DNA of 64,000 nt from an uncultured Gemmatimonadaceae bacterium. Its GTDB lineage: Bacteria > Gemmatimonadota > Gemmatimonadetes > Gemmatimonadales > Gemmatimonadaceae. A model generated the notes under the pieces. It ran no database searches, was not told the origin of the DNA, and saw only the letters and a program-made list of their open reading frames with translations. The position numbers and the translations under genes are program-made. Shown in pieces: positions 22,596 to 29,052 of the stretch (the first letter of the stretch is position 1; every line of letters starts with the position of its first letter). The DNA lies in the NCBI GenBank assembly GCA_963781585.1, contig CAWAGQ010000004.1:288001-352000 (forward strand), read 5' to 3'.

Positions 22596-25199
22596 ATGGT
22601 CCTGTCCGCATTGCTCGTCACATGGGTCAGCGGTGTCACGTCACCGGCAGCTCGGCTACCGGACGACTCGCTCATGGCGCCCGGTGTGTCGCACGCGCTG
22701 GCGGAGCGGCGTGCTACGCGAATCCGCAGCGTGCGATACGCTCTGACGCTGGATGTGACGCGCCCCGACACAGCTGTGGGACGGGTGACCATTCGCTTCA
22801 ATCTCAGGGGGCCAGGGGACGTCATCCTCGACTTCCGCGGGCCATTGCTGAGGCAGGCACTCGTCAACGGTGTCGCGCAACCGTCGCTGACCTTCAACGG
22901 TCAGCACGTCCGAATTCCGGGAGCGCTACTCACTAACGGCCCCAACCGCATCGACTTCGAGTTCTCGGCGCTGATTGCCGCGGCTGGCGCGAGCATCATT
23001 CGTGTGCGCGACCCATCCGATGGAGCGACGTATCTCTACACGCTTCTCGTCCCGAGCGATGCCGAGCAGCTTTTCCCGTGCTTCGACCAGCCTGACCTGA
23101 AGGCGCGGATTGCTCTCACCCTGACCACGCCGCTGGGTTGGCGCGCAGTGGCGAACGGCGTCGTTACGCGAGCCGACTCGTCATCGCGCGGCACCACCTA
23201 TGTGTTCCGTGAGTCGGAGCCGATCAGCACCTACCTCATTGCGTTCGCAGCCGGTCCATGGGCGGCTCTCACCGCCACCAACACAGCGCGTCCGATCACG
23301 CTCTACGTTCGCAGGTCGCGTGCGCGCGAGGTGGATGTCGACTCGATCATCCACGATGCGGATCGCGCGGTGTCATGGCTGTCGCGGTACTTCGCCTACC
23401 GTTATCCGTTCCAGAAGCTCGACATCCTGCTGGCGCCCGCTTTTCCGTTCGGAGGCATGGAACACCCTGGCGCCATCTTCTTCAGCGAGGAGCGATTCAT
23501 CTTCCGAGAGCCGCCAACGCTTACGCAGCGGCTCGGTCGTACCGCCACGGTTTACCATGAAGTGGCGCATCAGTGGTTCGGCGACCTGGTGACCATGCGA
23601 TGGTTCGACGACCTCTGGCTCAAGGAGGGTTTCGCGACCTACATGGCTGCGAAGATGCAGGCCTCGCTCGACTCCAGCGCCGGGGCCTGGGAGTCATTCT
23701 ATCTGCGGAACAAGCCGGCGGCCTACGCGGTCGATGTGAGCGGCGGCACGACGGCAATCTGGCAACCTCTCGACAATCTCGATCAGGCAAAGAGCAACTA
23801 CGGCGCCATCGTCTACAACAAGGCACCGGGTGTCCTGAAGCAGCTCAACTTCCTTGTCGGCGAGTCCGCCTTCCAACGCGGCCTCCAGCAATTCGTGCAC
23901 GCGCACGCGTTCGCCAACGCCACCTGGCGCGATCTGCTCGACGCCATCGCGGGCGTCCGTGGAAACCCGCTGCGCAACTGGGGCGAGGACTACATCACAA
24001 GAGCCGGGATGCCGGTGCTGGAGCAACGTCTGGAGACCAGTGACGGGCGGGTGACTCGGCTCGCCATCGTCCAGCATCCGGCGCAACTCGCGGTATCCGG
24101 CGCGCGGCCCTGGCCTATCCGCACCGAGCTGGTGCTCGCTTCGCCCGATGGGGTTCTGACTCGACTGCCATTGACCATCACTTCCGACACGACGCTGGTG
24201 AGCGCGGCCGTCGGCTTGCCCGCTCCGGCATGGATGTTCGCCAACGCCGATGACAACGCATACGCGCTGGTCCTGCTCGACTCCGTGAGCGTGAGCTGGC
24301 TCGAACACTCGCTGGGCCGGGTTCAGGTCGCCTTCGACCGCGCGATGCTGTGGGGAGCGCTCTGGGATCAGGTGCGGGAGGCGTCCCTCAGTCCGCGGCG
24401 GTTCATTCGCCTGGCGGTCCGCGAGCTGCCGCATGAACCCGACGAACAGATTCTGGCGAGTGAACTCAATCACCTGACGCGCGCGGTGACGGCGTACATC
24501 GATGGCGCGACCCGCGACACGCTGCTTCCGGACGTGGAGCGAATGCTTCTCGTCGGCGCGTCGGACTCGACAAGGTCGTATGGCGTGCGGCGATCGGAGC
24601 TGGCCGCGCTGATTCGGGTAGCGGCGAGCCGCACGATGGTCGATACCCTCGACGCGCTGCTGGACCGGGACCGGTTGGCGGGACTGCCCTTGGGTCCGTC
24701 GACGCGATGGTCCATCGTCACCCGGCTGGTAGCGCTTGGAGCGCCTTCGGCGGCGCGCCGTTTGGTGGACGAAGCGCGGCGCGATTCGTCCGCCGAGGGA
24801 GCGCGCCGGAAATTCGTGGCCGCTGCCGCGGCCCCACGCGCTGCGGTCAAGGCAGACTACTTCGCGCGCTACTTCGCTGACAGTACGCTCAACGAGGATT
24901 GGGCGACTGCCAGTCTCGATGCGTTCAACGCCGTGGAGTCGAGAGACATCACCGCGCCCTTCCTGCGCCCGGCACTCGATTCGCTGCCGTGGATACAGCG
25001 CAACCGCCGCATCTTCTTTCTGGGATCCTGGATCAATGGGTTCCTGGGCGGGCAGCTCGACGAGGCGGCGTTAGGCATCGTACAGCGCTTTCTCGGCGAG
25101 CGCGCAGACCTGCCTGACGATCTGCGGTTGAAGGTGCTGCAGGCGGCGGACGAACTGGAGCGCACGGTGCGCATACGGCGTCGGTTTTCCAATGAGTGA
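22596..25199 (+). CDS. M1 family zinc aminopeptidase (PepN-like, ERAP1-type C-terminus), probably exported
   Basis: FPCFDQPDLKA, GGMEH, HEVAHQWFGDLVT..WLKEGFA, IVYNKA. Hydrophobic N-terminus. Confidence 0.93.
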   Translation: MVLSALLVTWVSGVTSPAARLPDDSLMAPGVSHALAERRATRIRSVRYALTLDVTRPDTAVGRVTIRFNLRGPGDVILDFRGPLLRQALVNGVAQPSLTFNGQHVRIPGALLTNGPNRIDFEFSALIAAAGASIIRVRDPSDGATYLYTLLVPSDAEQLFPCFDQPDLKARIALTLTTPLGWRAVANGVVTRADSSSRGTTYVFRESEPISTYLIAFAAGPWAALTATNTARPITLYVRRSRAREVDVDSIIHDADRAVSWLSRYFAYRYPFQKLDILLAPAFPFGGMEHPGAIFFSEERFIFREPPTLTQRLGRTATVYHEVAHQWFGDLVTMRWFDDLWLKEGFATYMAAKMQASLDSSAGAWESFYLRNKPAAYAVDVSGGTTAIWQPLDNLDQAKSNYGAIVYNKAPGVLKQLNFLVGESAFQRGLQQFVHAHAFANATWRDLLDAIAGVRGNPLRNWGEDYITRAGMPVLEQRLETSDGRVTRLAIVQHPAQLAVSGARPWPIRTELVLASPDGVLTRLPLTITSDTTLVSAAVGLPAPAWMFANADDNAYALVLLDSVSVSWLEHSLGRVQVAFDRAMLWGALWDQVREASLSPRRFIRLAVRELPHEPDEQILASELNHLTRAVTAYIDGATRDTLLPDVERMLLVGASDSTRSYGVRRSELAALIRVAASRTMVDTLDALLDRDRLAGLPLGPSTRWSIVTRLVALGAPSAARRLVDEARRDSSAEGARRKFVAAAAAPRAAVKADYFARYFADSTLNEDWATASLDAFNAVESRDITAPFLRPALDSLPWIQRNRRIFFLGSWINGFLGGQLDEAALGIVQRFLGERADLPDDLRLKVLQAADELERTVRIRRRFSNE

Positions 25200-25468: not shown

Positions 25469-25756
25469 CAATTGGGGTTAAGTTTCTGTCACCAGGAGCC
25501 GCTTTCAGTAGTTGGGGCGGGTCATTCAGAAGCCCCGCCCCACGTCCACGCACCTCGGTTCTCCATTCCCAACAGGACGGTAAGGGTGACGCGCTTCCAT
25601 CGCACTGTGGCGAAAGAGCTTTGCCACTCGGGAGGTTACTGGCCCCGGGCGTCCCGGAGTCGCGTCATGAGCCGTTGTCTATCGACGCTGTCTTGTGCGC
25701 ATGCAGTTTCCGTCTGATTATTAAGGCCGATCAAGCCCCTCCAACCCGCTACCTTG

Positions 25757-27025
25757 ATGCTCTACGTCGAATCTCCGCTCGACGCATATCGCAGCGATCT
25801 GGCGCGAAATGCGAATCGCGAGGATTTCGGAGGCGCCGATACGGTCTGGCTGCTTACCGCACACTGCCTCTCGAGAATCATCCGCACCGGCGTCGAAGAC
25901 CGTGGCGTGAGCGCTGCGCAATCCGCGTCGGCGCTGCGCGATCTCCTCGGTTCGGATCCGGACGGTTGCCAGCTTCCGGAGCCGGAGCGGCGGGATCTCT
26001 CGCAGGTCGTCGACGGCCTCACGGCGTTGACTGACCGCGATTCGGCCGATGCGGTCGCGCGGGGCGTGCGCGGAATGACCAGTCGCATGTCGGATGCAGG
26101 CGCGGTTTCCATGGCCTACACGACGCTGGCCAGCACACGCGAACTGGTGGGGTTGGCGAGTGATCGCGAGCGAGGACTTCTGGCCGCCGACCAGGCGCGG
26201 GTTGCGCGCCTGCTGGGCGACCTCGACACGTCGGAGGAACTGTACCAGGCCTGCTCCGACATCGCAGAGCGGTCGGTCGACTTCGCCCTCCTCTCGCGCG
26301 CCTGTCTCGGTCGTGGCGTGATCAATCGAGTGCGGGGCAACTATCCCCGGGCACGCGTCTTCTTCGAGCGCGGACTCGAGCTCGGCGAGACGGCGCATGC
26401 CAGCGAACTGGTGATGCTGGCACACCAGGGCCTGACCATCTGCTTCGCGATCGGTCATGACTTCGATCGTGCGCTGAAGCACGCCTGGGCCACCTATCTG
26501 TGTTCGGAGGGCGATCGGGCCCTGGAGGGGGAGGCCCTCGGCAACCTCTCGCAACTCTGCCTGGATGCGGGCTTCCCGCGCGCCGCGCTGCAGGGATTCG
26601 CCGCCGTACTTGATCGAACCGAAGTGCTTCGCGTGCGTTTGAGCATGCTGGGCGGCGCCGCGGTTGCAGCGGCACGATGCGACAAGTCGGATGTCGTGGA
26701 GCGCGTTGCTGCTGAGGCCGAGCGGCACGTGTTGCGATCAGCGCTCGCCTACGAGAATGCCCAGACCCTGTTTCACCTCGCCACGGCGTACGGCGTCATC
26801 GGCAATGCGGAGCGCGCGTCGGCCTATCTCACGCGTGCACGGCGGCTCGCGAAGGTCAGGGGCTTTTTCGAACTGCTGCACGCGTGTGAAAACGCCAAGC
26901 TCTCGCGGGCGACCGTTGAAGCCATTGCGCCGCACACGCTGTCTGAGGCCTCGCGGGAGGTCGTGGCGTCCCTCGCCGGAATGGACGCAGGCGACACCGC
27001 CGGGGTGCTCGCGCTGCGGAGTTAG
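25757..27025 (+). CDS. Cytoplasmic TPR-like helical-repeat protein
   Basis: About 5-6 TPR-like units (RACLGRGVINRVRGNYPRARVFFERGLEL; GEALGNLSQLCLDAGFPRAALQGF; AQTLFHLATAYGVIGNAERASAYLTRA). No signal peptide, TM helix or obvious HTH. Confidence 0.8.
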   Translation: MLYVESPLDAYRSDLARNANREDFGGADTVWLLTAHCLSRIIRTGVEDRGVSAAQSASALRDLLGSDPDGCQLPEPERRDLSQVVDGLTALTDRDSADAVARGVRGMTSRMSDAGAVSMAYTTLASTRELVGLASDRERGLLAADQARVARLLGDLDTSEELYQACSDIAERSVDFALLSRACLGRGVINRVRGNYPRARVFFERGLELGETAHASELVMLAHQGLTICFAIGHDFDRALKHAWATYLCSEGDRALEGEALGNLSQLCLDAGFPRAALQGFAAVLDRTEVLRVRLSMLGGAAVAAARCDKSDVVERVAAEAERHVLRSALAYENAQTLFHLATAYGVIGNAERASAYLTRARRLAKVRGFFELLHACENAKLSRATVEAIAPHTLSEASREVVASLAGMDAGDTAGVLALRS

Positions 27026-27044
27026 ACGGCGTTCAGGCGCCGCG

Positions 27045-27073
27045 GGGCCGGGGTGCGACGTCAACCCCGGCCC
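27045..27073. terminator. 10-bp GC hairpin between the convergent TPR and peptide genes
   Basis: GGGCCGGGGT-gcgacgtca-ACCCCGGCCC. No clear U-tract. Confidence 0.55.
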
Positions 27074-27102
27074 GACGAAAGCGCGGCGAGTGCTACTCTG
27101 GG

Positions 27103-27309
27103 TCAGCGCTGAGTGGAATCGGAGTCGCTGCGAGCGTTCGGGTTGATATAGTCGGCGTTCGGATTGATATAATCCTTGCTCGCGCACACGCCGGCACCCG
27201 GGATCTTGGCGCTGCGGCAGACCTGGGCGGACGGCGAAGTGGGCATCGAGCAGGCGGCAATGATGGCGGTCGTGGCGACGAATACTGCCAGGCGGATCGT
27301 GCTACGCAT
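27103..27309 (-). CDS. 68-aa lipopeptide precursor with tandem DYINPNA repeats
   Basis: GGAG RBS upstream of the ATG. Basic N-region, hydrophobic core and lipobox IAAC20. The two DYINPNA copies differ only at three synonymous third positions. Confidence 0.85.
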   Translation of the reverse strand: MRSTIRLAVFVATTAIIAACSMPTSPSAQVCRSAKIPGAGVCASKDYINPNADYINPNARSDSDSTQR

Positions 27310-27426
27310 GAGAGGTCTCCAAGGGAAGTGTGAGGGTCGCCATAGTTTGCACGCGGTACGTGCGGACTACCGACACGCTATGTGCAGTTGTGATACATGG
27401 CGTAACATTTTTGGCGGAAAGCGGAC

Positions 27427-28224
27427 GTGATCGTCGGCGCTCTCGTTTGGGAACAGACAGCCCGCACGCGATTGCGCGAGTCGCTCCGGAGTCCCATCAC
27501 GGTTCGCTTCTGCGACCGCCAGACAGAGCTCCTGGCCCTGGTCGAGCATGGCCTCGCCAGCGTGGCGGTGGTCGACATCCGTGATCGGGACGGCGAGTCC
27601 ACGCTCCCGGTTGTGCGCCGACTTCGGGACGACTTCCCGTCGGTGCCCGTGGTGCTGTACTGTGCCCTGGCGCCGGACGCGTCGCGCGATGTGCTCGACT
27701 TTGCGCGGTCGGGAGTCAGCGATCTCGTATTCCGCGGGGTCGATGATCTTCGCGTCACCCTGCGGGCAGCCGTTCAGGCGGCGCTGGACCACAGCTCGAC
27801 CAAGCAGATGCTGCTTGACCTGGAGCCGGTCGTTCCTCCGAACGTGCTTCCCATGCTCCGATTCTGCATCGAAAACGGCAGGCGCAACCTGGGAGTGGAG
27901 GAGGTCGCGTCGGCGCTCGGCGTGCACCGCAAGACGCTCCTGGACCGACTGAATGCCGTTGGTTATCCCTCACCCACCGCCATCATTGCCTGGGGGCGCT
28001 TGCTGGTTGCGGCGAGGCTGCTCGAGGATCCGGGACGCGCTGTGGACGAGGTCGCTCTGCTGCTCGATTTCCCATCCGGCACGTCGCTCCGGAACATGAT
28101 GAAGCGGTACACGGGCCTGGTCTGCGGCGAGGTTCGTCAGAACGGCGGGGTTCACTGCGTTTTCCACGCGTTCAAGCGCGCCGTCACTGCGGCCACTGCC
28201 GGGCATCCTCCGGGCGAGGTCTGA
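27427..28224 (+). CDS. Transcriptional regulator: degenerate receiver-like domain plus AraC-type double HTH
   Basis: N-terminal alpha/beta pattern (AVVDIRD, VPVVLY, GVSDLV). C-terminal VEEVASALGVHRKTL..RL, AARLLEDPG, VALLLDFPSGTSLRNMMKRYTG. Confidence 0.85.
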   Translation: MIVGALVWEQTARTRLRESLRSPITVRFCDRQTELLALVEHGLASVAVVDIRDRDGESTLPVVRRLRDDFPSVPVVLYCALAPDASRDVLDFARSGVSDLVFRGVDDLRVTLRAAVQAALDHSSTKQMLLDLEPVVPPNVLPMLRFCIENGRRNLGVEEVASALGVHRKTLLDRLNAVGYPSPTAIIAWGRLLVAARLLEDPGRAVDEVALLLDFPSGTSLRNMMKRYTGLVCGEVRQNGGVHCVFHAFKRAVTAATAGHPPGEV

Positions 28225-28251: not shown

Positions 28252-29052
28252 TCATAGCCGTCGCAGGAAACTCTCGGGGTCGTTGAGGAAGGCGCGCGTG
28301 AGCGCCACGTGCTCGAGGTCCTGATACGGCACTTCGCGAACCGGAATCTCGTCGAAGGTCAGCACACGGGCGCCGGGGAACGCGAGCAGTATCGGGGAAT
28401 GCGACGCGATGATGAACTGGCTGTGCTGCGCGACCATGTCCTTGATCATGGCGATGAGTCCGAGCTGGCTCTGCGGAGAGAGGGGCGCTTCGGGTTCGTC
28501 GAGCAGATAGAGCCCTCCCGGCACGAACCGGCTCTGGAACAGCCGGAAAAAGCTCTGACCGTGCGAGTTCTCGTCCAGATTCACGCCGTAGCGATTCTCC
28601 AGCCCGGCGAGCGACGCTCCCACTGGCCCCCTCGCCAATCCCCGGGCCATTGGTGAACGGTCCCGGTACTCGTCATCGATCTCCTCGAGGCGGCGCGTCA
28701 GGTCCTCGCGCAGCCGGGAGAGCGACTTGGCGAATCCGAAGAAGTCCTCGGCGCGCAGGAAGAAGCCGCGGTGGGTGCGCCGGTTCCAGACGAGCTGAAG
28801 CGCCGCCGCCAGACGCCGCTGATGGGCAAGCGTCTCGTCGGTCGTCGCCGATGTGCTGCCGACGGTGGGCAGGCCGCAGGCGGCCGCGAGCCCCTCCAGC
28901 AACGTCGACTTCCCGGACCCGTTCTCGCCGACAAGGAAGGTCACCGGAGTGCTGAGCGACGTCTCCCCAAGGGACTGGATTGCCGGGACGGTGAACGGGA
29001 ATCCGAAGGGGTCGGCCGGGCGGCGCAGCGAGAACGAGCGCAGGTGAATCAC
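28252..29052 (-). CDS. Stand-alone ABC/AAA-type ATPase (COG3910-like)
   Basis: Walker A GENGSGKS, signature-like SHGQSF, Walker B YLLDEPE, H-loop ASHSP. Confidence 0.9.
   Translation of the reverse strand: MIHLRSFSLRRPADPFGFPFTVPAIQSLGETSLSTPVTFLVGENGSGKSTLLEGLAAACGLPTVGSTSATTDETLAHQRRLAAALQLVWNRRTHRGFFLRAEDFFGFAKSLSRLREDLTRRLEEIDDEYRDRSPMARGLARGPVGASLAGLENRYGVNLDENSHGQSFFRLFQSRFVPGGLYLLDEPEAPLSPQSQLGLIAMIKDMVAQHSQFIIASHSPILLAFPGARVLTFDEIPVREVPYQDLEHVALTRAFLNDPESFLRRL

Follow-up and report, generated by a model that had tools for sequence, protein, structure and literature searches.

A conserved three-gene cassette of Gemmatimonadota, with a TPR protein, a small repeat-bearing lipoprotein and a receiver-fold/AraC regulator, as a candidate peptide-signalling module

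We analysed a stretch of 64,000 bp (hereafter the window) from an uncultured Gemmatimonadaceae bacterium (GenBank assembly GCA_963781585.1, contig CAWAGQ010000004.1, positions 288,001 to 352,000 of the forward strand) and identified in it a cassette of three genes, which encode a tetratricopeptide repeat (TPR) protein, a small lipoprotein carrying two tandem DYINPNA units, and a regulator that combines a CheY-like receiver fold with an AraC-type helix-turn-helix (HTH). The linkage of the three genes, which had been set beforehand as a check on the proposal of a cassette, recurs beside homologues of the TPR gene and is conserved in at least five families of the phylum. We give an even chance to the reading that the cassette is a peptide signal and receptor module working like the RRNPP systems of the Rap-Phr type, made of different parts and housed in a diderm phylum; it would then be their functional analogue. 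The elements of the locus are listed below with their coordinates in the window and their strand.

25757 to 27025 (+): TPR protein of 422 amino acids (aa), candidate peptide receptor, predicted to be cytoplasmic (open reading frame (ORF), Pfam TPR_12, AlphaFold2 model).
27045 to 27073 (no strand): 10-bp G+C hairpin between the convergent genes (fold z -1.55, not significant).
27103 to 27309 (-): pre-pro-lipoprotein of 68 aa, with signal peptide and lipobox, a Cys...Cys segment, two DYINPNA units and an acidic/Ser-rich tail (ORF and positional orthologues).
27133 to 27174 (-): two tandem DYINPNA units, candidate mature signal (codon comparison between the units).
27250 to 27309 (-): signal peptide ending in the lipobox I-A-A-C (Cys20), after which follows S-M-P-T-S-P (read from the sequence).
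27317 to 27320 (-): GGAG, ribosome-binding site for the small gene (alignment of upstream regions from 10 orthologues).
27370 to 27406 (no strand): imperfect palindrome of about 37 bp, candidate operator (alignment of 10 orthologous intergenic regions).
27427 to 28224 (+): regulator of 265 aa with a GTG start, CheY-like receiver-fold domain (about residues 1-132) and AraC-type HTH (161-238) (Pfam HTH_18, AlphaFold2 model, Foldseek).

The positions and features of the three genes proved to be those given in the preliminary description. The gene of the 422-aa TPR protein converges with the 68-aa ORF, with 77 bp from stop to stop. The small ORF has a ribosome-binding site (GGAG, 7 nt 5′ of the ATG), a lipobox and the duplicated DYINPNA, and the AraC-type regulator is divergent from it, with 117 bp between the two starts.

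The linkage was assessed in 50 loci, one per genome, from 50 genomes of the phylum including that of the window; they comprised the top TPR matches together with eight loci from other families. All were scored by a single script using profile hidden Markov models of the TPR protein and of the regulator together with a lipobox pattern, and a small ORF was counted when it was short, lay on the opposite strand, had a lipoprotein signal and placed its stop between -80 and +400 nt from the stop of the TPR gene. The regulator is the same-strand neighbour of the TPR gene in 45 loci (43 downstream and 2 upstream), lies on the opposite strand in one and was not found in four, of which two run into a contig end. 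A convergent lipobox ORF passed in 45 of the 50 loci, 44 of them convincing, while the background of the same test at random positions of the window's genome is 4.5 % (897 of 20000), so the arrangement is far beyond chance. Stop-to-stop distances in the passing loci, with one dubious case (L113) left out, range from -37 to +89 nt, and the small-ORF orthologues as scored in the 50 loci are 40 to 102 aa long. Two loci (L111 and L112) have the gene order regulator-TPR, and there too the small ORF converges on the TPR gene.

The genes of the TPR protein and of the regulator match in all 14 loci that were extended to 18 kb. The window's neighbours, coding for an M1 aminopeptidase, a FadB-like dehydrogenase and a GT2 glycosyltransferase, match in only the five closest of these loci, and the cassette stands beside rho and yceG in five more distant ones and beside unrelated genes in four others. 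The rho/yceG (mltG) context, a housekeeping setting unlike that of the window, is found in L071-L075 (genomes G144, G290, G112, G268 and G420), which come from two genera; G112, G144 and G290 are single-contig genomes. Only the three genes travel together and no other gene is conserved with them.

Relatives of the TPR protein were found in 28 of 61 related genomes (E <= 0.001), and a search with the family profile (E <= 1e-10) recovered relatives in 130 out of 401 genomes drawn from the whole phylum, a tally whose weakest matches may be generic TPR proteins. By taxonomic family, under our own labels, matches were obtained for 49/93 genomes in f1, 62/166 in f2, 8/70 in f7, 3/7 in f4, 3/4 in f8, 0/30 in f6 and 0/5 in f3. 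Both tallies take in the unpublished genomes G034, G102 and G216, which enter into none of the other results. A metagenome scan with the single protein found nothing, and one with the closer alignment A3 led to 33 loci. Among 8000 scored candidates the TPR family had 209 matches, all of them named 'TPR repeat protein' or 'hypothetical'. The family counts 702 clusters at 50 % identity with E <= 0.001 and 121 with E <= 1e-30, and the ESM Atlas clusters nearest to the TPR protein are mostly from Gemmatimonadota. Some genomes hold two or three cassettes with different C-terminal peptides (L118 and L044 in G316; L119, L120 and L048 in G411; L123 and L124 in G222). The window's genome has one copy each of the TPR gene and the small gene, with no second copy of the small protein at a meaningful E-value, and nine weaker paralogues of the regulator. 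No sequencing runs, RNA or DNA, were listed as holding the locus.

The small protein begins with a basic N-terminus and a hydrophobic stretch, followed by the lipobox with Cys20, and contains two further Cys residues; the DYINPNA units occupy residues 46-59 and are followed by a 9-residue acidic/Ser-rich tail. No credible family was found for it in Pfam or NCBIfam, and a word-indexed homologue search with the 68-aa protein matched only the protein itself, which is present in a public collection as a called gene. The ribosome-binding site recurs as a GGAG-like, purine-rich site at the same distance from the start in all 10 upstream regions aligned from orthologues. All versions of the small protein carry a lipoprotein signal and most of them, distant orthologues too, have P-[TS]-x-P shortly after the Cys. 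This combination, C-x(0-5)-P[TS]xP, is rare in the window's genome, where 6 of 403 lipobox ORFs have it.

The preliminary description had foreseen a variable C-terminal motif on short lipobox ORFs, and such a motif is present, identical within a gene and different between genes. The C-termini differ by lineage. In the clade of the window (uncultured Gemmatimonadaceae) we found a heptapeptide of the form [DN]-x-x-N-P-x-x in 2-5 tandem copies, placed either at the C-terminus or before a short unrelated tail. Other genera have a small protein that ends in ...P-W-[NGHVFY], a unit that is at times repeated two or three times, and further versions show a C-terminal motif of the S-G-Y type or a short Cys-bounded loop. 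One locus from a different family (L110) has H-S-P-D-P-G twice.

The two DYINPNA copies of the window differ in three codons, and all three differences are synonymous (0 non-synonymous). Across 40 distinct heptapeptide arrays, collected with a search pattern that fixes only positions 1, 4 and 5, the units within an array show 385 synonymous versus 8 non-synonymous codon differences, and the first units of these arrays comprise 27 different heptapeptides. As gene conversion would erase the synonymous differences too, the pattern points to selection that keeps each copy the same peptide. With complete 7-codon tail windows added, the counts become 444 synonymous and 577 non-synonymous, which means that the tails are not conserved repeats. 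Identity within an array, together with the change of the whole set between lineages, is what would be expected of a signal that carries specificity.

A Lys or Arg stands directly before the first unit in 28 of the 38 complete arrays, and was on this count rejected as a universal cleavage site. Three types of ending follow the arrays (L077-L136), namely no tail, an octamer resembling [SN]-x-x-[VI]-[RK]-P-G-[ED], and an acidic/Thr-rich stretch as in the window. Such tails may be caps that are removed in processing.

Co-variation was analysed in the 16 loci with a complete TPR protein, regulator and peptide. The partial Mantel correlation between TPR protein and peptide given the regulator was 0.38 (permutation p = 0.0014), and that between regulator and peptide given the TPR protein was -0.04 (p = 0.65). 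The TPR protein is the faster-evolving partner, with a mean p-distance of 0.435 versus 0.343 for the regulator. Judged by these distances, the divergence of the TPR protein appears to track that of the peptide after allowing for the divergence of the regulator.

Regarding the TPR protein itself, an in-frame TTG lies at 25754, yet the orthologues start at the ATG (25757). The frame is open for only 13 codons 5′ of this ATG (435 aa in all), which leaves no room for a signal peptide, so the protein is predicted to be cytoplasmic. Pfam TPR_12 was matched with 31.4 bits (cut-off 30.1), the only families matched were TPR families, and no HTH was found in Pfam at E <= 1; NCBIfam gave nothing further for any of the three proteins. 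The AlphaFold2 model, built on a 33-row alignment, has a predicted local distance difference test score (pLDDT) of 91.0 and a predicted template-modelling score of 0.86, and shows about 21 helices, arranged as a helical part at the N-terminus and then a TPR superhelix. Foldseek placed LGN/Pins first (E about 1e-6), with RapF, RapH, the Rap protein of phage phi3T and that of pLS20 within the top 50. A search independent of Foldseek (VIA Z) gave 24.0 for LGN, 23.5 for Pins and 21.8 for RapI at rank 3; further scores were 20.1 for the Phi105 Rap with peptide, 19.8 for RapH-Spo0F, 19.6 for the pLS20 Rap and 19.5 for domain III of MalT, and RRNPP receptors with an HTH of their own obtained 18.2 (NprR-NprX) and 17.1 and 16.0 (AimR). 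The alignments with RapH and the pLS20 Rap span model residues 25-372 (start at 25-26) and include the N-terminal helices. The best bacterial structural matches are Rap proteins, and the modelled protein fits a Rap-like build, which does not prove kinship with Rap.

Residues 7-17 (P-L-D-A-Y-R-x-D-L) and Trp31 (25775-25849) lie outside the TPR repeats and belong to the most conserved positions of the family; they may form a contact site for the regulator. A fused form of the TPR protein, suggested by apparent N-terminal extensions in one family (about 590-607 aa), is not claimed, as these are stop-to-stop frames without an extra Pfam domain. When the TPR protein (alignment A1) was co-folded with the small protein's residues 21-68, the score was 0.02 against a mark of 0.32, with controls not run, and speaks neither for nor against binding.

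The regulator matched Pfam HTH_18 with 42.1 bits (cut-off 33.6), and Response_reg was sub-threshold by sequence (E 0.16). Its AlphaFold2 model (pLDDT 90.9) consists of a (beta-alpha)5 N-terminal domain and a helical DNA-binding domain. The best Foldseek matches were StyR, FixJ and RcsB, and isolated receiver domains (KdpE, PhoP and Spo0F) matched with a TM-score of 0.77-0.82 and a root-mean-square deviation of 2.2-2.8 Å. The Asp at the acceptor position (D50 in the window) is not conserved among 14 orthologues, which have D, E or other residues there, and the 14-sequence alignment, read with the strands of the model, shows neither an acidic pair behind strand 1 nor a Lys behind strand 5. The gene had been introduced as that of a pseudo-receiver/AraC regulator; of the features of a two-component response regulator, the CheY-like fold is present and the conserved Asp, acidic pair and Lys are absent. 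From the alignment and the model, phosphorylation of this domain is unlikely, which makes a protein partner the natural input to the regulator; a receiver fold lacking the conserved acceptor Asp fits control by such a partner and not by phosphorylation.

In the divergent promoter region, the imperfect palindrome is the only block conserved outside the coding regions and the ribosome-binding site in the 10 orthologous intergenic regions. It lies 60 nt from the ATG of the small ORF and 20 nt from the GTG of the regulator, and as judged from this alignment it is a plausible candidate operator.

Outside the cassette, an M1-family aminopeptidase with an ERAP1-like C-terminal domain is encoded at 22596-25199 (+), 5′ of the TPR gene. 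It was considered as the processing enzyme and rejected, since its synteny holds in just the five closest of the 14 extended loci. On the 3′ side of the regulator, a P-loop protein of 266 aa (28252-29052, -) has matches to AAA_21 and AAA_15, which mark it as an ABC-like ATPase, and bears the family name 'AbiEii toxin'; this gene is common to only 3 of the 14 extended loci and hence does not belong to the cassette. A role as two-way terminator was considered for the hairpin between the convergent genes and rejected, as its z of -1.55 is not significant, it has no U tract and it was missing from the consensus terminator scan.

If the cassette works as a peptide-signalling module, the small protein would be exported by Sec, cut by signal peptidase II (SPII) and anchored in the membrane by its lipid. 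A protease would release the C-terminal unit or units, here DYINPNA, and the free peptide would accumulate outside the cell or in the periplasm and then be taken up again. The window's genome encodes three SBP_bac_5 proteins, which are binding proteins of the Opp/Dpp type, and none of them is linked to the cassette. After uptake, the peptide would bind the concave face of the cytoplasmic TPR protein, and since this protein has no DNA-binding domain of its own, it would act on the receiver-like domain of the neighbouring AraC-type regulator, as Rap proteins act on Spo0F or ComA. The regulator would in turn bind the palindrome between its own gene and the peptide gene, which would make the circuit autoregulatory. 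What the signal reports may be cell density or kin type, or equally the activity of an envelope protease in the same cell.

Several observations weigh against peptide signalling by the cassette. The lipobox predicts a product tethered to the membrane, and the outer membrane of a diderm would be an additional barrier to its release. No protease, transporter, exporter or importer, modifying enzyme or secretion-system gene is shared by the 14 extended loci. In Pfam and NCBIfam none of the families Rap, NprR, PlcR, Rgg, PrgX, AimR and ComR was matched at E <= 1, and no RRNPP receptor was present among the best 60 of the 78 PDB matches of the TPR family profile (E <= 10). Regarding the fold, the eukaryotic LGN and Pins outrank every Rap protein and many unrelated TPR proteins reach Z values of 17-20 with the model; the Rap match is generic, as helical repeats give a high Z in general. 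The comparison with Rap, NprR and AimR that had been suggested at the outset gave a divided answer, with Rap proteins as the best bacterial matches and a likeness that is not unique to them.

The linkage has its exceptions as well. The small ORF of L113 is dubious because it runs antisense within the regulator gene, and the five loci in which no small ORF passed are L026, where there is no room before the contig end, L027, L029, L030 and L115. In a paralogous sub-family (L119 and L120, both in G411) the TPR and regulator genes abut and the small ORF lies 5′ of the TPR gene and divergent from it. In the closest relative, a genome of the same genus as that of the window (G001, L014, about positions 969-2235), the TPR gene reads in two overlapping frames, corresponding to query residues 1-200 and 180-423, whereas neither the small ORF (96 % identical, both DYINPNA units unchanged) nor the regulator (94 % identical) is broken; either the receptor is frameshifted or the assembly is in error, the genome being 64 % complete. 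As to co-variation, partial Mantel tests are liberal when sequences share ancestry, and the closest pairs show none that is visible: L077 and L080 have the same peptide at a TPR distance of 0.181, and L077 and L081 differ in two peptide positions at a distance of 0.186. On balance, the earlier idea of an RRNPP-like peptide-sensing module is partly supported, by the linkage, the variable motif, the co-variation of TPR protein and peptide and a fold that resembles Rap without being unique to it.

The tethering and the missing importer are also what one would expect if the small lipoprotein were the regulated output of the cassette. The TPR protein and the regulator would then answer another cytoplasmic cue and turn on a tiny lipoprotein of the envelope or surface, and its variable C-terminus would face outward and serve adhesion, antagonism or recognition by a receptor elsewhere. 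The small gene and the regulator do share a divergent promoter region with a conserved palindrome, no importer is linked to the cassette in the 14 extended loci, and fast evolution of exposed peptides is generally known to be common. However, the small ORF still adjoins the 3′ end of the TPR gene in loci that have the regulator on the opposite flank, and the divergence of the peptide follows the TPR protein and not the regulator. A mature protein of 20-50 residues that ends in 2-5 identical short units is also hard to square with a structural role, and we consider this explanation unlikely.

The match between TPR protein and peptide and the linkage of TPR protein and regulator could be explained without any uptake step by secretion-coupled feedback of the kind of IpgC-MxiE or SicA-InvF. 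Here the TPR protein would bind, in the cytoplasm, the precursor that has not been exported, and export would free it to co-activate the regulator, with neither re-import nor signalling between cells. This is an established design, with TPR chaperones that bind an exported substrate and co-activate an AraC-family regulator (10.1101/2022.04.20.488988, PMC3299695, PMC10761746). The class II chaperones in question are small proteins of about 3.5 TPR motifs that serve a type III secretion system, whereas the TPR protein of the cassette has 422 residues and about 21 helices, finds its best bacterial matches in Rap proteins, would have a Sec/SPII substrate and is not accompanied by secretion-system genes in the 14 extended loci. 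Sec/SPII substrates are not known to require a chaperone of their own, which counts against the feedback, and the multiple identical copies of the unit are left unexplained by it. Such a feedback thus seems quite improbable.

The small ORF might instead encode the precursor of a natural product made on the ribosome and modified after translation, the production of which the TPR protein and the regulator would control. It is short, with a leader and a variable C-terminal core, and some cores are repeated while others have Cys pairs or a terminal Trp. The leader, however, is an ordinary lipoprotein signal peptide, and the 14 extended loci have no modifying enzyme, protease or transporter conserved beside the cassette, so we regard a natural product as very improbable. 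It is hardly credible that the small ORF arose by chance in G+C-rich spacer DNA and that the unit is no more than a TPR protein beside a regulator: spurious ORFs are many in high-G+C genomes, and 1064 ORFs of the window's genome pass the lipobox test, but the idea is already contradicted by the linkage in 45 of 50 loci against a background of 4.5 %, by the GGAG-like site in all 10 upstream regions, by the 385 synonymous versus 8 non-synonymous differences and by the called gene in the public collection.

Returning to peptide signalling, passages of PMC10075063 define an RRNPP signature by a propeptide of 10-100 aa, a secretion signal, a receptor of 250-500 aa, TPRs, and adjacency, with Sec signals of the signal peptidase I type at the strict level and of the SPII type accepted at the relaxed level. 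All five features are present in the locus, with 68 aa, a lipobox signal recognised by pattern, 422 aa, TPR_12 and a distance of 77 bp, and because of the SPII-type signal it falls at the relaxed level. Propeptides with this type of signal are a minority, 211 of 2734 RRNPPA propeptides in the relevant part of PMC9765709. As no homology to RRNPP was detected, we file the cassette as working like RRNPP and not as a member.

Among the known systems, Rap-Phr of Bacillus, plasmids and phages has a cytoplasmic, all-helical TPR protein of about 380-420 aa without a DNA-binding domain. It likewise has an adjacent small gene for an exported propeptide with the specificity in its C-terminal part, and tandem duplication is possible, duplicated pheromones being documented for Phr propeptides in PMC11343458. 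A partner with a receiver fold (Spo0F in RapH-Spo0F, and here, as a candidate, the neighbouring regulator) and several paralogous cassettes with different peptides per genome are further common points. The differences are that there is no detectable sequence relation, that the host here is a diderm, that every small protein seen has an SPII-type signal, and that the small gene is convergent, whereas in Rap-Phr it lies downstream on the same strand. Moreover, the presumed partner regulator is here co-encoded in the cassette as a receiver-fold/AraC fusion, and the peptide units are either heptapeptides built around N-P or sequences that finish with P-W.

In NprR-NprX, PlcR-PapR and AimR-AimP, too, the gene of a TPR receptor neighbours that of an exported propeptide, the C-terminus of which yields the mature peptide, and NprR and AimR gave the Z values reported above. 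These receptors bind DNA with an N-terminal HTH of their own, in contrast to the TPR protein of the cassette, which has no Pfam HTH and a separate linked regulator. LGN and Pins of animals, the best structural matches, align over 291-318 residues, and their TPR superhelices have been solved with Inscuteable, NuMA and Frmpd4/Preso1; they are eukaryotic scaffold proteins with 13-15 % identity. Their likeness to the model suggests only that its fold is of the peptide-binding type of TPR superhelix.

Passages of PMC10075063 and PMC9765709 treat signalling by encoded peptides that are read by cytoplasmic TPR receptors as a trait of Firmicutes and their mobile elements, and the former names small molecules as the basis of quorum sensing in Gram-negative bacteria. 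Literature searches on peptide quorum sensing in Gemmatimonadota, judged by title or abstract, found no such system among the papers listed. The same outcome was obtained among the papers listed for RRNPP in Gram-negative hosts with lipoproteins and tandem repeats, and RRNPP in diderms led to a plasmid review. These full-text searches agree with the preliminary description, in that none of them showed a system of this kind for Gemmatimonadota. The diderm host, the convergent order, the universal lipoprotein signal and the separate, co-encoded receiver-fold/AraC regulator set the cassette apart from the known RRNPP systems.

In a wider form, which we put forward tentatively and at somewhat below an even chance, the cassettes would be true peptide-pheromone systems found across the phylum and independent of the RRNPP systems of Firmicutes, with lipid-anchored precursors of 1-5 copies, a short peptide that is released and taken up, a Rap-like receptor and a regulator that works independently of phosphorylation, and the variants would be pherotypes that separate kin in soil. 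If the cassette does signal by peptides, it would represent a second, apparently independent invention of this design, in a soil phylum that has been little studied and is for the most part uncultured, and it would come with a ready-made catalogue of candidate peptides and receptors. It would also raise the mechanistic question of how a precursor anchored by lipid gives rise to a signal that diffuses past the outer membrane. Should the signal have no social role, the cassette is still a conserved and so far unannotated regulatory module, the members of which that we saw are all named 'hypothetical' or 'TPR repeat protein'.

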